A DNA stretch of 64,000 nucleotides, taken from assembly GCA_963771175.1 (NCBI GenBank), contig CAVYSY010000026.1, positions 64,001-128,000 on the forward strand, read 5' to 3'. The DNA comes from an uncultured delta proteobacterium (GTDB taxonomy: Bacteria; Myxococcota; Myxococcia; Myxococcales; Myxococcaceae). A program made the translations under genes and the position numbers. Below the pieces are notes generated by a model. It saw only the letters and a program-made list of their open reading frames with translations, ran no database searches and was not told the DNA's origin. This document shows, one piece after another, positions 43,701 to 53,668 of the stretch. Positions within the stretch are counted from its first letter, which is position 1. Each line of letters starts with the position of its first letter.

Positions 43701-45984
43701 ATGCTCGTCGTACCGTCCGTGCTGGATGCGGTCACCGTCCATGCCGAGGGCGCGCTCTGCACGCGCCTGGCATCGGTTCCTTTCGACAAGGGCAGACTCC
43801 CCGTACAGGTGCGCATCGAGGGCCTGCCGCTCGGGCTGCGCACCGGCTCGCTCCGGGCCGCCGTGCTCAAGGGCCCCCAGGGACTCCAGGTGCGGGACAT
43901 CCGGCCCGCCTTCGACGTGCGGCTGCCTCCGGAGACGGACATCCCCGCGGCGCAGCGCGCCCTGGAGGACGCCCAGGAGAAGCTCCACGGCCTCTCCGCC
44001 GAGCTGGAGCGCGTGCAGCGCGACCTCCAGTCCCTCCAGAAGCTCAAGCCCGCCTTCCCGCCGCGCAAGAAGGAGGAGCCGAGCGAGCCCCGCGAGTCGG
44101 CGCTCACGGCCCTCCTCTCGCTCGCGGGCTTCGTCGACACGGAGCTCGCCGCCCTGCACGCCCGGCACCTGGAGCTGGAGCGCCAGCACCGCGACGCCAC
44201 CGAGGAGGTGGAGCTGCGCCGCCGGAGGCTGGAGGAGAGCTCGTCCGCGGTGCGGGGCCAGCGCGCCCAGCTCTACCGGGCGGCCGTCCTCACGCTCTCC
44301 GAGGTGGGCCCGGTGGACGAGGGCGCGCAGCTCGCGCTCGAGTACGCGGTCCACGGGGCCCGTTGGGTGCCCGGCTATGACCTGCGGATGCCCCGGAGCC
44401 TCGACGGGGGCACGCTGAACATGCGCGCCTCCATCATCCAGCTCACCGGCGAGGACTGGAGCAACGTGCGGCTGTCCCTGTCCACCGCGGACCTGGCTCG
44501 GCGCGCCGACGTGCCGGAGCTGAAGGCCCTGCGCATCGGCCGTCATCAGCCGCCCCCGGCCCGCTCGGGCTGGCGCGAGCCACCGCCAGGGCTCGACGAG
44601 CTGTTCTCCGGCTACGACTCGGCCCGGCCTTCCCCGCGCAAGCCCGCGCCCCGGCAGGAGCGCACCCGGGCGCGCGAGTTCCCCATGCCTCCGCCGGCCG
44701 AGCCCATGCCGCAGCAGGCGCCCTACGGGAGTGCGCGCCGCCTCCGCCCCCCGCCCCGATGGCGGCGGCGCCGATGCGCGTGTCCCAGTCCATGCGCGCC
44801 GTGGGAGGCGCGCCCGAGACCGCCGAAATGGCCGCGCCCGCGATGGCCCGGCCCTCCATGCCCCTGCGCGGAGGAGCCCCGCCCCCTGCAGCCCGGGAGC
44901 ACCGCCTCCGAGGCCCAAGAGCGCGAACATGATGAAGAGGCGCAGCATGCCCGCCGATGAGGCGCCCATGGAGATGGCGAAGGAGGCGAAGGCGGACATG
45001 CTGTCCGACCTCGATGACGAAGACTCGTTCTCCGACGGATTCGGAGGAGGAGGCGGCCTCGGGGGGAGAGAGCAGCGGCAGGACGCCGGGCTGGAGCCGG
45101 CGGGAGGCCTGCTCGACTACGGCAGCCTGGAGATGGGCTCCGCGAAGGACCCGGCACAGCGTGGGCGGCTGCAGCCCCAGCCCGAGGCCCTGTCTCGGGA
45201 GCTGCTCTCGCTGATGGCCGTCCACGTGCGCGTGGATGTCGTGGCGATCATGGCCCAGTACGAGCGCACCGTGTCCTCCGTCCGGGACGTGCCGCCGCCG
45301 ACCTGGTCCGTGCCGCCGCGCCAGTCCTCGCCGCACTTCGACCACCGCTTCGACGTGGAGGTGCGCGCCGAGGTGCCCTCGGATGGCGTGTGGCACATGG
45401 TGCCCGTCTTCTCCGCCCCGGTGGGACTGAGCGCCGAGTACGTCTGCGTGCCCTCCATGGAATCGCGCGCCTTCCGCACCGTGAAGGTGGAGAACCGCAC
45501 GCCGCACGCGCTGCTCGCCGGCCCGGTGGACGTCACGCTCGGCGACGAGTTCCTGATGACCTCGCCCCTGCCCACGCTCGCGCCCGGCGCCACGCAGCGG
45601 CTGGGCCTGGGCGTCGAGGAGTCCATCAAGGTGTCGCGCAACACGCGCTTCGACGAGGCCTCCGGCGGAATGTTCGGCGGCTCCAACGTGCTCACCCACC
45701 ACGTCAGCATCGAGCTGGCCAACCGCACCCCGCAGCGGGCCGTGGTGGAGGTGCTGGAGCGCATGCCCGCGGTGCCCTCGGCCGAGAAGGACATCAAGGT
45801 GGAGGAGTCCGAGGTCAAGCCCGCCTGGAGCAAGCGCTCGCTCCTGCCCGGCGAGACGCCCGTGGAGGGCGAGCGGGCCTGGAAGGTGACGCTGCAGCCG
45901 GGTGAGACGCAGGCGTTGAACGCGACGTGGGTCGTACGGATTCCCTCGAGCAAGATGCTCGTGGGCGGAAACCGGAGGACGTGA
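43701..45984 (+). CDS. DUF4140/DUF4139 (MuiA-like) protein, frameshift in Pro-rich linker
   Basis: VTVHAEGA...LP....GSLR, coiled coil, LEY.V..ARW.PGYDL, Q.TGEDW.NV.LSLST, VPSDG and LLAGPV motifs. Confidence 0.85.
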
Positions 45985-47537
45985 TGAGCACCCCCATCCA
46001 TCTGCCCGTCGTGAAGGTCACCGTCCTCGAGGATCGCGCGCTGGTGGAGCGCCGCGGAGACGTGGTGCTGTCCGCCGGCCCCCAGCGGCTGCGCGTGGAG
46101 GGGCTCTCGCCGCTCGCGGTGGACCGGTCGCTCCAGGCCCAGCTCTCGGGGGGCAGCGTGGCGCAGGCCCGCGTGAACCGCACCTGGAAGGAGAAGCCCC
46201 GCGAGGGCGCGCGCGAGCGGAAGACGGAGCTGCGCAACCGCGTGGAGGACCTGGAGGCCGAGTGGAAGCGCGCCCACGCGGACGTGCAGCGGCTCCAGTC
46301 CCGGCTGGAGGTGGTGAACGTGGCGCGCGAGGACGTGCTGCGCTCCATCGCCGAGTTCTCGGGCGTCGGGCGCGCGAAGCCGGAGTCCTGGCACGAGCAG
46401 CTCGAGACGGTGCGCAAGGAGCTGGCCTCCACCGAGGAGGCGCTCCGAGAGGCGCGCAAACACGCGGAGGTGACGCGGCTGCGGCTGGTGGAGACCCAGG
46501 CGGCCATCGCCCAGAGCGAGCAGCCGGAGCCCCAGCTCGTCACCGCCGCCGAGCTGGAAGCGAACCACCCGGAGGGAGGCACAGTCTCGCTGCGCGTGAC
46601 GTACCTGGTGCCGTGCGCCGTGTGGCGGCCGGCGTACCGCGCCACGCTCACCCCCGCCGAGAAGGGTGAGGCGGTAACGCTCGAGTGCGAGGCGGTGGTG
46701 TGGCAGCACACCGAGGAGGAGTGGAAGGACGTGGAGCTGCTGTTCTCCACGGCTCGCCCCACCCTGGGTGCCTCGCCGCCGCGACTGGTGGAGGACTGGC
46801 TGCGGCTGCGCGACAAGAGCGAGCAGGAGAAGCATACGGTGGAGGTGTCCATCCGCGAGGAGGTCATCCAGACCACCGGCGAGGGCGGCGCGAGCCAGAC
46901 GGAGGACATGCCGGGCCTGGACGACGGCGGCGAGGCGCTGACGCTACGGGCGCAGCACCGGGCCACCGTGCCCTGCGATGGCGCGCCCCACCGCGTGCCG
47001 CTGTTCCAGTTCACCGCCCCGGCGACGTCCGAGCTCATCGGCTACCCGGAGCACTCGCCGCTGGTGCACCGGGTGGCGCGCTTCGACAACCGGGGGAGCT
47101 CGGTACTGCTGGCGGGCCCGGTGGACCTGGTGCGCACCAGTGGCTACGTGGGCCGCGCCCAGCTCAAGTTCACCGGCGTGGGCGAGCGGCTCAAGCTGGG
47201 CTTCGGCAGCGAGGACACCCTGCGCATCGCCCGGCTGGAGGACTCGAAGCAGGACACCAACCGGCTCACCGGCCGGCGCACCCGGACGCAGCAGGTGAAG
47301 CTCTTCCTCTCCAACACCGGCACCCGCCCCGAGAAGGTGGTCATCGAGGAGCGCATGCCCGTCTCCGAGGTGGAGGCCGTGGAGGTGAAGCTGCTTCAGG
47401 AGCAGACGAAGCCCGCCCCCGCGAAGGTGAGCGAGGACGGCATCGTGCGCTTCGAGCTGGCCGCCCCGCCGCGCTCGCAGCAGGAGCTCGCCTTCGCCTT
47501 CTCGGTGGCCAGTTCCTCCAAGGTGGCCGGGCTCTGA
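45984..47537 (+). CDS. DUF4140/DUF4139 (MuiA-like) protein
   Basis: VTVLEDRALVER, Y.V..A.WRPAY, Q.T.EEW.DV.L.FSTARP, LLAGPV and IEERMPVS motifs. Confidence 0.9.
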   Translation: MSTPIHLPVVKVTVLEDRALVERRGDVVLSAGPQRLRVEGLSPLAVDRSLQAQLSGGSVAQARVNRTWKEKPREGARERKTELRNRVEDLEAEWKRAHADVQRLQSRLEVVNVAREDVLRSIAEFSGVGRAKPESWHEQLETVRKELASTEEALREARKHAEVTRLRLVETQAAIAQSEQPEPQLVTAAELEANHPEGGTVSLRVTYLVPCAVWRPAYRATLTPAEKGEAVTLECEAVVWQHTEEEWKDVELLFSTARPTLGASPPRLVEDWLRLRDKSEQEKHTVEVSIREEVIQTTGEGGASQTEDMPGLDDGGEALTLRAQHRATVPCDGAPHRVPLFQFTAPATSELIGYPEHSPLVHRVARFDNRGSSVLLAGPVDLVRTSGYVGRAQLKFTGVGERLKLGFGSEDTLRIARLEDSKQDTNRLTGRRTRTQQVKLFLSNTGTRPEKVVIEERMPVSEVEAVEVKLLQEQTKPAPAKVSEDGIVRFELAAPPRSQQELAFAFSVASSSKVAGL

Positions 47538-47576
47538 TACCCGGCTGCTGTAGCCCTGCGAGGGTCCGCCGTGCGC

Positions 47577-48260
47577 TCAGGTGTAGTCCCGGACGATGAC
47601 CTCGCCGGGCTGGGGCGCGGCCAGCAGCAGGTTCAGCGCATCCATGAGGATCCACTTCTGGAGCGCTTCGTCCCCAGGCTTCCCGAGCGAGTGCCCCGCG
47701 ATGAATCCACGCGGGCACAGCGCCCGGGGTGGCCGGGCCTGAGCACTCTCCTCGGGCTCCACGGTGATGAGCACCGTGGGGATGCCGATCATCTCGATGA
47801 ATCTCTGCACCGTGACCACGGTGCGATGGCAGAGGCGTCAACCGCCGGTGAGCAGCACCGCGTCCGGCCTCACCTTGTCCACCTCGCGGACCAGCTCGGG
47901 GATGGTGGTCTCGCGCAGCTCACGCAGGGCCTGACTGAAGCCCAGGGAGAAATGCTGCTCGCTCAGGCCCCCGATTCGCCCCTCGCGCGTCAAAGAGCAC
48001 AGCCGGTCGATGGGAAAGACACAGTTGAGGTCCTTGTCGACGCACGCATGGTCGTAGTGGGTGTCGTCGTAGGCGAGGTCCGCGGTGGTCATGTCGCTGC
48101 GGATGACACGGAAGCTCGTGTCCCCTTCCAGGGCGAAAGGCTTGTCATTCTTCTGACGGACCGCGGCGGTCGTCACGAGGCAGATCGATGACTCCTCGAG
48201 CTTGCGGCGGAACGGCGTGAACGGAATGCAGTAGCGAGAGAGCTCGATCGGTTTTTGCAT
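47577..48260 (-). CDS. PrdB/GrdB-like selenoprotein (Sec at in-frame TGA 47838-47840, UxxC)
   Basis: ORFs 47838..48269 and 47577..47819 share one frame: DAVLLTGG-U-RLCHRTV...IEMIGIPTV. Motifs LVTTAAV, GDTSFR, HYDH..VDKDLNCVFPIDRL and G..LGKP match reductase selenoprotein B. 227 aa. Confidence 0.88.
47803..47834 (-). promoter_or_regulatory. Bacterial SECIS-like hairpin
   Basis: mRNA reads UGA-cgc-CUCU-gccauc-GCACCGU-GGUC-ACGGUGC-AGAG. The G-led tetraloop begins 20 nt after UGA. Confidence 0.75.
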
Positions 48261-48283
48261 CTGCCTCACCAGTGTCCGAGGAC

Positions 48284-48316
48284 CGCGGGGTGGCCGCGCG
48301 GAGGAGCCACCCCGCG
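48284..48316. repeat. Intercistronic 11-bp stem-loop
   Basis: CGCGGGGTGGC-N11-GCCACCCCGCG between the two selenoprotein genes. Confidence 0.7.
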
Positions 48317-48349
48317 AAGGGTTGCCGCCGATGAAACACGCGCCAGCGC

Positions 48350-48856
48350 CTATTTCAGTTTGTCGAGTGCCTCCATGATCTTGTCGGTGGGCGGCTGCTC
48401 GCCGATGTCGTGGATGTCGATGTACCGAAGGATGCCCTGCTTATCGACGACGAAGATCGCCCGTTCGACGGTGCCTGAACCTCTCATCACACCGTACTGG
48501 GTCGCGACAAAACCATACGGCCAGTTGTCGCTCAGGAGCGGATAGGACAACCCGCCCATCGACTTCGCCCACGCATCATTGCTGTAAACCATGTCCGTCG
48601 AGATGCCCAGGACCTGGGCATTGCGCCGCTCGAACTCGGAGAGATCCTCCTCGTACGACGGCATCTGGATCGTTCAAACAGGTGTGAACGCGGCGGGGTA
48701 GAAGACGAGCACCACGGCCTTCTTGCCGCGGTAATCACTCAGACGGATCGTCTTGTGCTTCTCTCCCTTGCCGGCGGTGTCGCCGGTGGCCATGAGCGCG
48801 AAGTCGGGGGCTTCTTCTCCGACCGAGAGCTTCCAGACCGGCCTGTGCGTCGCCAT
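48350..48856 (-). CDS. Selenocysteine peroxiredoxin, AhpE-like (Sec at in-frame TGA 48674-48676)
   Basis: ORFs 48674..48856 and 48350..48664 are in frame: VLVFYPAAFTPV-U-TIQM, the PxxxTxxC peroxidatic motif. LGISTD, PLLSDNWPYG and ERAIFVVD also present. 168 aa. Confidence 0.92.
48643..48671 (-). promoter_or_regulatory. Bacterial SECIS-like hairpin
   Basis: mRNA reads UGA-ac-GAUCC-agaug-CC-g-UC-GUAC-GA-GG-a-GGAUC. The GU-led loop begins 17 nt after UGA. Confidence 0.65.
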
Positions 48857-49136
48857 GACGGGTCTCCTGGGTGAGGGTTGGGTACGGCGGCCCTACGTTA
48901 GAGGCACTCCCAGCCGAATCTAGTCACGGCGCGGCATCAGCGTTGGCCAGCCGACAAGGGGCGCCCTGGTACGCTCCCACTCCGAGCACCCAGGGCCGCA
49001 TCCGTGCCCGACCCGAGCGCGATCACCGCGCGACTTCGTCAAAGCAGCTCTTGCTTCCTTCCGGAAGCGGACGCTTTGCTGCTCGCCCCGAGGAGCGCCC
49101 GGTGGAGAACCCCTTCCCCCCGGGCACACACGCCCC

Positions 49137-52100
49137 ATGACAGACAGAAGGATCCTCCTGCACCCCGGCCTGCTCGTGCTGGCCGTGTGCATGACTGGCA
49201 ACGTGGCCCTGGCGCAAGGCACCTCCGTGCTCCTGGGCACGGTGGTGGATGCCTCCAACCGGAAGCCGGTGATGGACGTGGTGGTGACGGCGACCTCGCC
49301 CGCCCTCCAGGGCGAGCAGACGGTCGTCACCGACCAGTCCGGCCAGTACCGCATCCCCCAGCTTCCTCCCGGCGTGTACACGCTGAGATTCGACAAGGAG
49401 TCCTACAAGCCCCTCTCCCGCGAGAACATCGGCGTCCGGTTGGACTACTCGGTGCGCGTCAACGTGGAGCTCCTGCCCGAGGCGCTCGGCGAGGAGATCA
49501 ACGTGGTGGCCCAGGCGCCCACCGTCGACATCGGCTCCACCTCCACGGGGGTGAACGTCAGCAAGGACTTCCTGCGCAACATCGCCGTCGTCTCCCCGAG
49601 CGGCAAGGGCGCGGCGTCGCGCTCCTTCGAGTCGCTGGCGGAGCTGGCCCCGGGCGCCAACGCCGACACCTACGGCGTCTCCGTCAACGGCGCCACCTCG
49701 CCGGAGAACCAATACATCGTCGACGGCGTCTCGGTGAATGACCCGGGCTTCGGCATCAACGGCACCCCGCTGAGCGTGGAGTTCATCGGCGAGGTGAGCG
49801 TCATCAGCGGCGGCTACCTGCCCGAGTACGGCCGCTCCACCGGTGGCGTGGTCAACGCGGTGACGAAGTCGGGCTCCAACGAGTTCCACGGCTCGGTGTT
49901 CGGCAACCTCACCCCGGGCGCACTCTCCCCCCGGGGAACGGAGCTCCGCCAGGAGGCCGGCACCATCTCCGGTCAGGCGTCGCCGTGGAACCTGGGGGAC
50001 TTCGGCTTCGAGGTGGGAGGCCCCATCCTCCGGGACAAGCTCTGGTTCTACACGGGCGTGGCCCCCTCCTTCACCCGCTACCAGTTGGAGCGCAACCTCA
50101 ACGCCCTGGTGCTGGACGAGAACGGCAACACCGTGCAGGACGAGCGGGGCTTCACCCAGACCCAGCGCATCGAGGGCACGCGGCGGCTCTACTTCGCGGA
50201 CCAGCGCACCTTCCAGTTCATCGGCAAGCTCACCTACCTGCTCAACCAGGACCACAACGTCAGCGTGTCCGTGACGGGTACGCCCTCGTCCTCGGGAGGC
50301 GAGGGTCGCTTCGCCATCAGTGAGCGCACCGGCGCCCCAGAGGTGGAGCGCATCTCCGGCCAGCAGGGGGCCATCGCCACCCAGCGCATCGCCAGCAGCT
50401 TCGACACCAGCCTCAAGTGGTCCTCCTCCTTCCTGGACAAGCGCCTGCTCTTCAACGCGACCCTCGGCTGGCACCACCAGGATGCCAGCGTGCGCGCCTC
50501 GGACGGCTCGCGGGCCGGCAGCCTCACGGGGCTCTCTGGCGTCTCCAACACCACCTGGCAGCGCACCACCCCGGGCCAGCACTCCATCACCGAGTTCGAG
50601 GACCTGCCGGATCCCTCCGTCTGCCTCTCGCCCACGCCCGAGCTGGCCACGCGCTGCCCGGTGCTCAGCTACATGACGGGTGGCCCGGGTCGCCTCGACG
50701 AGAGCAAGCTGGACCGCTACCAGGGCAAGCTGGTGGGCACCCTGCTGCTCCAGGGCGCGGGCCAGCACGTCATCAAGGCGGGCGTGGACCTCGAGCAGAT
50801 GCGCTACGACCACATCCGGGCCGTGAGCGGCAGGACCGTCCTCATCGAGGCGGATGACGGGGCCTATTTCTATGACTACCGCCAGTACGGGTACCTCACC
50901 GGCCCGGACCAGGTGCTCATCCAGGACTTCCAGCACCCGGTGTCCACGTCCAACTCCATCGGGGGCTTCGTGCAGGACAGCTGGAGCCTGTTCGACATGG
51001 CCACCCTCAACGTGGGGTTGCGCTACGACGTCCAGCAGCTCATCGGCGGTGGACAGCTCGCCATGGTGCTGGCCAACCAGTGGTCGCCCCGGCTGGGATT
51101 GATCGTCGACCCCACCCGCTCCGGCAAGGCCAAGCTCTACGCCAACTACGCCCGCTACTACGAGAGCGTCCCGTTGGACCTCGTGGACCGCTCGTTCCCC
51201 GGCGAGCCCGGCGTGCGCTCGGAGAAGGACTCCCGCGTGTGCGATCCGAGAGATCCGGCGCAGCAGCAGGGCACCTGCTCCAACGACAGCGCGCGCCTGG
51301 CCTTCCGGCCCGGGCTGGACGCCAACCGCCTGTGGGAGACCGTGGGCGCTGGCGCCACCATCGTGGACCCCACCATCCAACCCCAGTCCACCGACGAGTT
51401 CGTGGTGGGTGGCGAGTACGAGCTGCTGGCCAACGCCCGTGCCGGCCTGTCCTATACGCGGCGCTCCCTCAACATCGCCATCGAGGACATGAGCCGGGAT
51501 GACGGCGCCACCTACTTCATCGGCAACCCGGGGCGCGGCTTCGCCAAGGACTTCGTCGAGCCACAGCGCACGTATGACGCGGTGACGCTCTTCTTCCAGA
51601 AGAACTTCGCCGACCAGTGGCTCGCCCAGGTCAGCTACACGTGGTCCTCCCTGCGCGGCAACTACGAGGGCCTGTTCCGCTCCGACACCGGCCAGCTCGA
51701 TCCGAACATCAACTCCGACTTCGACCTCGTCTCCCTGCTGCCCAACCGCCAAGGCCCGCTGCCGGCCGACCGCACACACCAGCTCAAGGCGTTCGGCGCA
51801 CGCGAGTTCGTCCTGCGACCCGACCTGAGCATCAACCTCGGCATGTCCTACCGGGGCGCCTCCGGCACGCCGTACAGCTACCTCGGGGCGCACGAGGACT
51901 ACGGTCCGGGACAGGCCTTCATCCTGCCGCGCGGAGAAGCGGGCCGCCTGCCCTGGGTGCACCGCATCGACAGCCGTCTGGCCCTCAACTACCGGCTGAC
52001 CCGCGAGCTCACCGCCTCGCTCAGCGTGGATGTCTTCAACCTCTTCAACTTCCAGGCGCCCGTCTCGTACGACCAGAACTACACGTACTCGGCCGTGCTG

Positions 52101-52256
52101 CCCATCGAGGGGGGAAGCGCGAGCGATCTGCCCGCGAAGCTGGTGGACCCCGACGGCAACCCGGTCGATGCGGCGTCCCTCAACAAGAACTTCGGCAAGC
52201 CCCTCGCCTACCAGTCGCCGCGCTCCTTCCGGTTCGGCGCCCGGGTGTCCTTCTAG
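49137..52256 (+). CDS. TonB-dependent receptor, Oar-like
   Basis: Signal peptide, CarboxypepD_reg-like N-domain, plug (ENQYIVDG, PEYGRSTGGVVNAVTKSG), beta-barrel and terminal PRSFRFGARVSF. Confidence 0.93.
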   Translation: MTDRRILLHPGLLVLAVCMTGNVALAQGTSVLLGTVVDASNRKPVMDVVVTATSPALQGEQTVVTDQSGQYRIPQLPPGVYTLRFDKESYKPLSRENIGVRLDYSVRVNVELLPEALGEEINVVAQAPTVDIGSTSTGVNVSKDFLRNIAVVSPSGKGAASRSFESLAELAPGANADTYGVSVNGATSPENQYIVDGVSVNDPGFGINGTPLSVEFIGEVSVISGGYLPEYGRSTGGVVNAVTKSGSNEFHGSVFGNLTPGALSPRGTELRQEAGTISGQASPWNLGDFGFEVGGPILRDKLWFYTGVAPSFTRYQLERNLNALVLDENGNTVQDERGFTQTQRIEGTRRLYFADQRTFQFIGKLTYLLNQDHNVSVSVTGTPSSSGGEGRFAISERTGAPEVERISGQQGAIATQRIASSFDTSLKWSSSFLDKRLLFNATLGWHHQDASVRASDGSRAGSLTGLSGVSNTTWQRTTPGQHSITEFEDLPDPSVCLSPTPELATRCPVLSYMTGGPGRLDESKLDRYQGKLVGTLLLQGAGQHVIKAGVDLEQMRYDHIRAVSGRTVLIEADDGAYFYDYRQYGYLTGPDQVLIQDFQHPVSTSNSIGGFVQDSWSLFDMATLNVGLRYDVQQLIGGGQLAMVLANQWSPRLGLIVDPTRSGKAKLYANYARYYESVPLDLVDRSFPGEPGVRSEKDSRVCDPRDPAQQQGTCSNDSARLAFRPGLDANRLWETVGAGATIVDPTIQPQSTDEFVVGGEYELLANARAGLSYTRRSLNIAIEDMSRDDGATYFIGNPGRGFAKDFVEPQRTYDAVTLFFQKNFADQWLAQVSYTWSSLRGNYEGLFRSDTGQLDPNINSDFDLVSLLPNRQGPLPADRTHQLKAFGAREFVLRPDLSINLGMSYRGASGTPYSYLGAHEDYGPGQAFILPRGEAGRLPWVHRIDSRLALNYRLTRELTASLSVDVFNLFNFQAPVSYDQNYTYSAVLPIEGGSASDLPAKLVDPDGNPVDAASLNKNFGKPLAYQSPRSFRFGARVSF

Positions 52257-52942: not shown

Positions 52943-53080
52943 CTCCAGAGGGTTGAGCCATAGCGGACCCCGAGGGAGCGGACGCGCGTTCCTTCGGGGT
53001 ATCCACCCGTGCGGGTTGTCAGTGGCCCTTGCTATACGTCGCGCCGCTGCCACGTACCGCAGCCCGAGGGGAAACCGCAC

Positions 53081-53668
53081 ATGAACCGCTTCATCGCCGT
53101 TGCTTCGTTGTTCGCCGCTGCTCAGGCGTTCGCCGCCGAGCCGTCCGCCACCGTCAAGGTGGAGCCCAAAGCCGCCTTCGAGCGGATGAAGTCGCTCGCT
53201 GGCGAGTGGAAGGGTCAGGCGGGCCATGGGGAGCAGACGTTCCCCGCGGTCGTGACGTACAAGCTCGCGTCCAACGGCTCGGTCGTCATGGAGACCCTCA
53301 TGCCGGGCACTCCGCACGAGATGATCTCCATGTACCACCTCGATGGTGGGGAGCTCGTGATGACGCACTACTGCGCCATGGGGAACCAGCCGCGGATGAA
53401 GCTGGACACCACCGCCTCCACCCAGGACGAGCTGAAGTTCGCCTTCGTGGGCGGCACGAACCTGGATCCGGCGAAGGACGGCCACATCCACGCCGGCGCG
53501 CTGAAGTTCGACGGCGCGGCGCTGCTCGCCGACTGGACCTTCTGGGCCGGTGGCAAGGAGCAGGGCCACAACAAGTTCAACCTCAAGCGCTCCAATGGCG
53601 CCGCCGTCGTTGCTCCCGCCGCGCCCGCCGCCAGGCCGGCCGCGGCGCCCCAGCCGAAGCACCACTGA
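53081..53668 (+). CDS. Secreted hypothetical protein
   Basis: Signal peptide ending AFA. KSLAGEW, SMYHLDG..L.MTHYCAMGNQPRM and GHIH motifs. Confidence 0.75.
   Translation: MNRFIAVASLFAAAQAFAAEPSATVKVEPKAAFERMKSLAGEWKGQAGHGEQTFPAVVTYKLASNGSVVMETLMPGTPHEMISMYHLDGGELVMTHYCAMGNQPRMKLDTTASTQDELKFAFVGGTNLDPAKDGHIHAGALKFDGAALLADWTFWAGGKEQGHNKFNLKRSNGAAVVAPAAPAARPAAAPQPKHH

Follow-up and report, generated by a model that had tools for sequence, protein, structure and literature searches.

The stretch of DNA considered here (the window) comprises 64,000 nucleotides of contig CAVYSY010000026.1, from the genome of an uncultured myxobacterium (GCA_963771175.1). Its minus strand carries, between positions 47577 and 48856, a gene for a peroxiredoxin (Prx) followed by a gene for a protein related to PrdB, a subunit of D-proline reductase, and each of them contains one in-frame TGA at the redox-active residue. 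Four ORF (open reading frame) fragments cover the region, and translation of the window joins them into two open frames once TGA is read as selenocysteine (Sec, U). The locus is a genuine, mis-annotated two-selenoprotein operon.

The two genes and their products

The features of the locus, in window coordinates, are the following (SECIS, selenocysteine insertion sequence; aa, amino acids; nt, nucleotides):

48350..48856, minus strand: Prx gene, AhpE-like 1-Sec form, 168 aa plus stop, with a Pfam AhpC-TSA match
48674..48676, minus strand: Prx Sec codon (UGA), residue 61, in the context FTPV-U-TIQM
48625..48662, minus strand: predicted SECIS-like hairpin in the Prx mRNA, at nt 15-52 (numbered from the U of UGA), with the apical loop at nt 31-35
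48261..48349, minus strand: intergenic spacer of 89 nt, holding a G+C-rich inverted repeat of 10 bp
47577..48260, minus strand: gene of the PrdB-like selenoprotein, 227 aa plus stop when read from the ATG at 48260
47838..47840, minus strand: PrdB-like Sec codon (UGA), in the context LLTGG-U-RLCH, motif G-G-U-R-L-C-H
47806..47831, minus strand: predicted SECIS-like hairpin of the PrdB-like mRNA, nt 10-35 counted from the U of UGA, with the core stem at nt 19-32 and a GGUC apical loop

Both genes have the same orientation, with the Prx stop at 48350-48352 and the PrdB-like ATG at 48258-48260; an alternative GTG start for the latter lies at 48269.

Regarding the first protein, Prx matches the Pfam family AhpC/TSA (PF00578) with 121.1 bits, against a cut-off of 26, and its best solved relative is AhpE of Mycobacterium tuberculosis (Rv2238c; E 2.8e-26), where U61 is aligned to the peroxidatic Cys; AhpE entries make up six of its eight best solved matches, the top six included. 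The translated protein has no Cys at all, and Sec is its only chalcogen residue. Across 53 sequences, P54, T58, U61 and R132, which form the P-x-x-x-T-x-x-C/U motif and its Arg, are invariant; residues 22-29 (MATGDTAG) are an eight-residue stretch that is gapped in the alignment with AhpE, and with it starts a nearly invariant ATGDTAGKG motif. The top NCBIfam match is the PrxU model NF040737, with 69.5 bits versus a cut-off of 270. Prx is thus best described as a predicted AhpE-like peroxiredoxin of the 1-Cys type, in its 1-Sec form.

As for the second protein, NCBIfam TIGR04483, the PrdB equivalog model, matches it with 147.8 bits over model positions 20-232 of 238, without reaching the cut-off of 300. 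Pfam GRDB (PF07355) is just exceeded (23.2 bits, cut-off 22), but only over model positions 220-345 of 347, and the scores stay below the cut-offs of both GrdB models (TIGR01918, 44 vs 65.45; TIGR01917, 39.6 vs 602). Judged from these alignments, the protein is homologous to PrdB over its full length, though divergent, and its predicted kinship with the GrdB superfamily is confined to the C-terminal module. Databases label its relatives “D-proline reductase (dithiol) PrdB”, and an ESM Atlas query with a natural Cys homologue (P0003) returned only PrdB/GRDB clusters, the nearest being PrdB of Bacillota. The motif U-R-L-C-H-R contains U-x-x-C and no third Cys, and the natural Cys forms carry G-G-C-R-x-C-H; among 69 PrdB-like sequences, Sec/Cys141, Cys144 and Cys80 (model numbering) are invariant, and Cys11 nearly so.

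The AlphaFold2 model of the PrdB-like protein, built with 69 sequences, has a pLDDT (predicted local distance difference test) of 94.2 and a pTM (predicted template modelling score) of 0.92, and places Sec between a strand (134-138) and a helix (142-157). Foldseek found no match to this model at E<=0.001 (best E at least 0.016), and VIA-align gave best Z values of 8-9.3 with generic alpha/beta sandwich proteins, such as LacI-type proteins, B12-binding domains and short-chain dehydrogenases/reductases; a search of solved structures by sequence gave no match at E<=1.

An initial annotation, made from the letters of the window, had described four fragments, two in-frame TGAs at the redox residue, a hairpin after each TGA, co-orientation and a gap of about 90 bp, and it was accurate in every detail, the gap being 89 nt. 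It had also named the products an AhpE-type 1-Sec peroxiredoxin and a PrdB/GrdB-like UxxC protein: the former agrees with AhpE as the closest solved relative and with the lack of any Cys besides the Sec, and the latter was borne out as a full-length, sub-threshold PrdB homologue.

Selenocysteine codons, hairpins and machinery

Of 126 related loci, 124 carry TGA at the Prx site and two carry TGC; of 144 loci, 142 carry TGA at the PrdB-like site and two carry TGC, and the two loci with TGC are the same for both genes. Some loci are counted twice, the totals corresponding to 100 (Prx) and 112 (PrdB-like) unique sequences of 210 nt. TGA is retained down to about 61-68% protein identity, and natural Cys homologues exist for both proteins. 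Contigs assembled from public runs did not differ at either TGA among the 40 differences listed out of 179.

The hairpins downstream of the two codons add a second line of evidence. In the Prx hairpin, as folded by RNAalifold from 26 unique sequences, 10 of the 12 pairs are invariant and the two outermost each fail in one sequence; variation is confined to these two pairs, to columns 33-35 of the apical loop, and to the unpaired columns 18, 48 and 49. The same constraint is visible in codon choice, the commonest synonymous codon having a mean share of 0.95 at Prx codons +5 to +17 vs 0.68 in the 30 codons upstream. In the PrdB-like hairpin, pair 21-30 is C-G in 46, G-C in 41, G-G in seven and U-G in one of 95 unique sequences, a set that leaves out 21 unique minus-strand sequences, and C-C never occurs; the variants number 8, 21 and 4 in a smaller sequence set. 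This change is a synonymous swap of Thr codons, from ACC..ACG to ACG..ACC. Both hairpins are therefore under constraint at the RNA level, one compensatory synonymous swap included. Rfam, run in permissive mode on positions 47300-49300 of the window, gave no match.

The genome also encodes the machinery for Sec insertion. The selD gene (380.8 bits, above cut-off) is found on the contig of the window itself, some 21 kb before the window begins (G000:C26:42756-43685, minus strand), and the tRNA-Sec scores 71.4 bits with anticodon tca. As a side observation, selD holds an in-frame TGA of its own, as a Sec-containing selenophosphate synthetase. The genome has selA and selB as well, each with frameshifts in this assembly: selA is spread over several frames, and selB contains three 1-nt insertions, none of which occurs in three relatives whose ORFs are intact (682-683 aa). 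In a comparison over 5 kb, the unpaired 1-nt indels, three in number, all fell within selB. It should be noted that rpoB lies in three pieces and that fusA has a frameshift (G000:C25:96748-100856 and G000:C22:132100-134200), and that the DUF4140/DUF4139 gene of the window (43701-45984, plus strand) is split into two overlapping frames. These broken genes indicate that the assembly carries frequent 1-nt indel errors, which probably lower the completeness estimate (81.66%). The frameshifts of selA and selB are read as errors of the same kind because the essential rpoB and fusA are frameshifted too, and for this reason real pseudogenes were rejected as an explanation. The Prx and PrdB-like genes have no coding indel with respect to a 94%-identical relative.

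Taken together, both in-frame UGAs are to be read as selenocysteine codons with predicted local SECIS hairpins, and the TGA pattern is neither chance nor sequencing error. The initial annotation had taken both genes for selenoprotein genes, and this view is upheld by the TGA conserved in homologues (TGC in two loci), by the Cys homologues, by the constraint on the hairpins, and by the presence of selA, selB, selC and selD, with selA and selB frameshifted in the assembly.

Several full-length database relatives of Prx (P0132, P0172, P0181, P0207, P0215, P0217 and P0218) carry W at the Sec position, as F-T-P-V-W or F-T-K-V-W, apparently because gene callers read the UGA as Trp. Most other database entries are fragments of 104 or 140 aa that end at the UGA. 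Public gene calls cut both genes in this way or misread the codon, and either error hides the pair from surveys based on annotation.

Pairing, distribution and neighbourhood

The PrdB-like gene is immediately preceded by the Prx gene in all five loci of relatives, in 31 of 31 loci of species genomes (Anaeromyxobacter species, metagenome-assembled genomes (MAGs) of Myxococcaceae and Myxococcales, and one Archangium MAG), in 28 of 28 loci of a phylum survey, and in 79 of the 80 contigs from metagenomes; the last of these contigs has only 11 nt upstream. The metagenome scan returned close relatives (68-86% identity), so that its count speaks for the pairing within this clade. In this set the spacers measure 3-105 nt, and they are 3-9 nt in many loci. 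As to whether the two genes stay adjacent in relatives, a point raised by the initial annotation, they adjoin wherever enough DNA is present.

For co-occurrence, 401 evenly drawn Myxococcota genomes were sampled, with the PrdB-like subfamily of the window set at E<=1e-99 and the Prx orthologue at E<=1e-45. Some PrdB-like match occurs in 60 of these genomes, and in 46 it belongs to the subfamily of the window; all 46 carriers also have the Prx orthologue, and in reverse the figure is 46 of 47. The distribution is patchy, with some PrdB-like match in 35/67, 8/17 and 9/171 genomes by family, and within the genus the protein of the window was matched in one of 17 other genomes. In myxobacteria the two genes are, by all appearances, inherited as one unit.

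The Cys form occurs in only two loci, L142 and L143 (in genomes G407 and G306, which belong to one genus), and there both genes have Cys and are still adjacent; in another genome of the same genus, G248, both genes have Sec. Intact selA is retained in G306 and G407 (513-517 bits), and therefore the change to Cys in both genes is not accounted for by loss of the Sec trait. A gene fusion in the Cys-form loci was ruled out, given that they contain two separate ORFs in different frames.

In the phylum, at least three further PrdB-like selenoprotein subfamilies were observed (L170-L177; e.g., L174:5001-5672, L172:5001-5624 and L173:5001-5651), with one TGA each; their motifs are U-P-F-C-C, U-P-M-C-H and U-G-T-C-N, and none stands beside a Prx. 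A Cys-form Prx of 64% identity comes, according to its source name, from an Armatimonadota MAG, a hint that the pair may range beyond Myxococcota.

Regarding the neighbourhood, the pair is flanked by the convergent DUF4139/DUF4140 gene and by a divergent TonB-dependent-receptor-like gene (49137-52256). The flanks of 10 loci had no third gene family in common, and PF09338 was absent from them too. In loci of the Anaeromyxobacter type a metallophosphoesterase gene recurs in the flanks, and several of them also encode, 0.5-1 kb upstream of the Sec-Prx, another AhpC/TSA peroxiredoxin, which is of the Cys type and 31-33% identical (L038:4519-5070, plus strand; L158, L164, L166 and L168). In a 94%-identical relative (L031:1-225) the DNA upstream of the pair matches positions 53029-53250 of the window, 4 kb further on; therefore, the TonB-dependent-receptor-like gene is absent there, and the pair seems, from this comparison, to sit in a variable neighbourhood.

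As for the spacer, its inverted repeat has no T-run; it is found in two loci of the Archangium type, with spacers of 75-90 nt, and is absent from loci with 3-36 nt between the genes. Consensus scans of the locus for promoters and terminators found none, and no terminator-like site in the spacer. Contigs of relatives from RNA libraries (metatranscriptomes) span the spacer and parts of both genes, which does not prove transcription and is no more than a weak hint.

Proposed function, alternatives and comparison with known systems

The function that we favour, with a confidence somewhat above even and by analogy, is that of a two-gene operon whose two selenoproteins would cooperate in peroxide reduction, the PrdB-like protein re-reducing the 1-Sec Prx. 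Prx would need an external reductant because the peroxidatic Sec is its only redox residue and there is no resolving Cys. In the proposed cycle, the Prx selenolate would reduce the hydroperoxide and become a selenenic acid; the selenolate of the PrdB-like protein would attack it to form a mixed Se-Se intermediate; the Cys of U-x-x-C would resolve this, leaving an intramolecular selenenylsulfide in the PrdB-like protein; and a general system such as thioredoxin would re-reduce the latter. Mycothiol is not expected in this phylum. The PrdB-like protein would probably be a counterpart of mycoredoxin-1 (Mrx1) and not part of a Stickland amino-acid reductase; in M. tuberculosis this dedicated CxxC redoxin reduces the 1-Cys AhpE (PMC4360819). 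A broader idea, which we hold tentatively and at slightly less than even chances, is that the orphan PrdB selenoproteins, a puzzle for selenoproteome catalogues from aerobic soil and ocean, would not be Stickland enzymes and would form a new class of Prx reductants without the thioredoxin fold, working on a 1-Sec Prx by a diselenide relay whose chalcogens evolution keeps matched, Sec-Sec or Cys-Cys.

The cooperation is favoured by the conserved Sec codons and the Sec machinery of the genome, by the close coupling of the two genes and their matched chalcogens, by the lack of a conserved third gene and of matches to PrdA/GrdE or GrdA, and by the precedent of AhpE with Mrx1. Several points weigh against this cooperation. 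The PrdB-like protein has a second invariant Cys, in N-C-V-F-P, and many invariant residues outside UxxC, which would suit a substrate-binding enzyme too. Its predicted fold is a generic three-layer alpha/beta one, not the thioredoxin fold, and, as no solved relative was found, structure offers no precedent for a redoxin role. The Sec/Cys double switch probably happened only once, within one genus, and therefore the matched chalcogens are suggestive only. Related genomes are not independent, so that the counts of pairing and co-occurrence are a description of the pattern, not a test of it; moreover, one genome (G039:C33:10514-11005, minus strand) has a 62%-identical Sec-Prx and no PrdB-like match, the only exception to co-occurrence in the 401. 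Finally, the missing Stickland partners, a point in favour of the cooperation, are less firmly established: PF09338 (PrdA/GrdE) and PF04723 (GrdA) had no match in this genome, which is only 81.66% complete, and the same searches matched none of 14 control genomes and are thus without a positive control; this also holds for PF09338 in five other carriers of the pair, one of them a complete Anaeromyxobacter genome, where no match was found. Within these limits, the absence of PrdA or Grd partners that the initial annotation had noted in the window extends to the genome for PrdA/GrdE and GrdA, and to the five carriers for PrdA/GrdE.

The main rival, which we regard as unlikely though deserving of attention, makes the PrdB-like protein a substrate-specific selenoenzyme, e.g., for the reductive cleavage of a small molecule, with Prx as its electron carrier or acceptor or as a protector of the selenol; the pair would then serve as a metabolic reductase rather than as a peroxidase. 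This suits the whole-length homology to PrdB, the invariant residues outside UxxC with the second Cys, and the predicted fold, which is not thioredoxin-like, and the PrdB-like Sec subfamilies of the phylum that lack a Prx imply that a Prx is dispensable for some functions of the superfamily. It fits less well with the failure to find the pyruvoyl subunit (PrdA/GrdE) and GrdA and with the lack of a third gene conserved beside the pair, while the invariant P, T, U and R would argue that Prx is a working peroxidase instead of a mere carrier. To go one step further, and assign the protein to a classical D-proline or glycine reductase, as a subunit with partners elsewhere in the genome, is scarcely credible and the least probable of the readings: the relatives are named PrdB in their sources and the closest clusters in the ESM Atlas belong to PrdB of Bacillota, but with 147.8 bits the match to TIGR04483 falls far short of 300, PF09338 and PF04723 are unmatched in the genome, as is PF09338 in the five carriers, at least one of them complete, and the PrdB-like gene always adjoins Prx.

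It is improbable, too, that both genes are merely co-transcribed in an oxidative-stress or selenium regulon with no direct exchange of electrons. Adjacency and co-occurrence alone do not prove contact, and the extra Cys-type AhpC/TSA gene upstream of some Anaeromyxobacter loci hints at a general antioxidant neighbourhood; on the other hand, co-occurrence is near-perfect in both directions (46/46 and 46/47), the short spacers of many loci (3-9 nt) point to translational coupling, the two genes agree in their Sec/Cys state though selA is retained, and a 1-Sec Prx needs some reductant. Very unlikely, in turn, are dead relics or artefacts, in which the TGAs would be true stops, or selA and selB real pseudogenes with Sec no longer inserted. 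The concentration within selB of the three insertions not seen in relatives, together with a selA spread over several frames, would be expected from such decay; yet essential rpoB and fusA are equally frameshifted and the DUF4139 gene is split, the selenoprotein genes themselves show no frameshift against their 94%-identical relative, and selD, with its TGA, and the tRNA-Sec are intact.

Cooperation of the two selenoproteins in peroxide reduction would, if true, provide a new type of Prx-reducing protein and a rare case of two selenoproteins that react together. The PrdB label implies anaerobic amino-acid fermentation, a poor fit with aerobic myxobacteria, soils and surface oceans, and the PrdB family is among the commonest selenoproteins of those habitats (PMC1088965, PMC2398784); a fixed partnership with a Sec-Prx assigns this family a definite function that can be tested.

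As selenoproteins the two families have stood in the catalogues since 2005-2006; what is new is their obligate pairing and the matched Sec/Cys state. In the portions of the literature consulted, the Sargasso Sea catalogue counts 43 Prx (T-x-x-U) and 42 “proline reductase PrdB” (U-x-x-C) proteins (PMC1088965), the GOS (Global Ocean Sampling) catalogue 253 Prx and 235 PrdB (PMC2398784), and a 2006 survey credits Anaeromyxobacter dehalogenans with “peroxiredoxin (3), proline reductase” (PMC1794560); a 2022 review places PrdB as D-proline reductase (PMC9312934). The section on selenoprotein operons in a 2026 review does not list the Prx-PrdB pair (PMC13188914), and the pairing was not found in the consulted portions of the selenoproteome catalogues or reviews, whose supplements may hold tables of gene neighbours. 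A full-text literature search for PrdB-like or GrdB-like proteins gave only unrelated papers.

In comparison with known systems, Prx resembles AhpE of M. tuberculosis in that neither has a resolving Cys and the peroxidatic residue aligns with U61, and differs from it in having Sec at this position. With PrxU of Eubacterium acidaminophilum (NF040737), which is thioredoxin-dependent according to the name of the model, it shares Sec at the peroxidatic T-x-x-U position, whereas its score, far below the cut-off, places it in another Prx subfamily. The PrdB-like protein is of the same length class as PrdB of the Clostridium sticklandii and C. difficile type (TIGR04483), is homologous to it end to end, and has Sec in the same U-x-x-C, the motif given for PrdB in the available text of PMC13188914; it differs by a score of half the cut-off, by a PrdA/PrdC context that was not found, and by standing always beside Prx. 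GrdB has the motif U-x-x-C-x-x-C in the same portion of that review, whereas the protein of the window has no third Cys. In contrast to the AhpE/mycoredoxin-1 couple, the candidate reductant here is predicted to have neither a glutaredoxin nor a thioredoxin fold. Finally, the PrdB family of the selenoproteome catalogues bears the same label and the same UxxC motif; in the consulted parts of these catalogues Prx and PrdB are treated separately, whereas here they form a pair.

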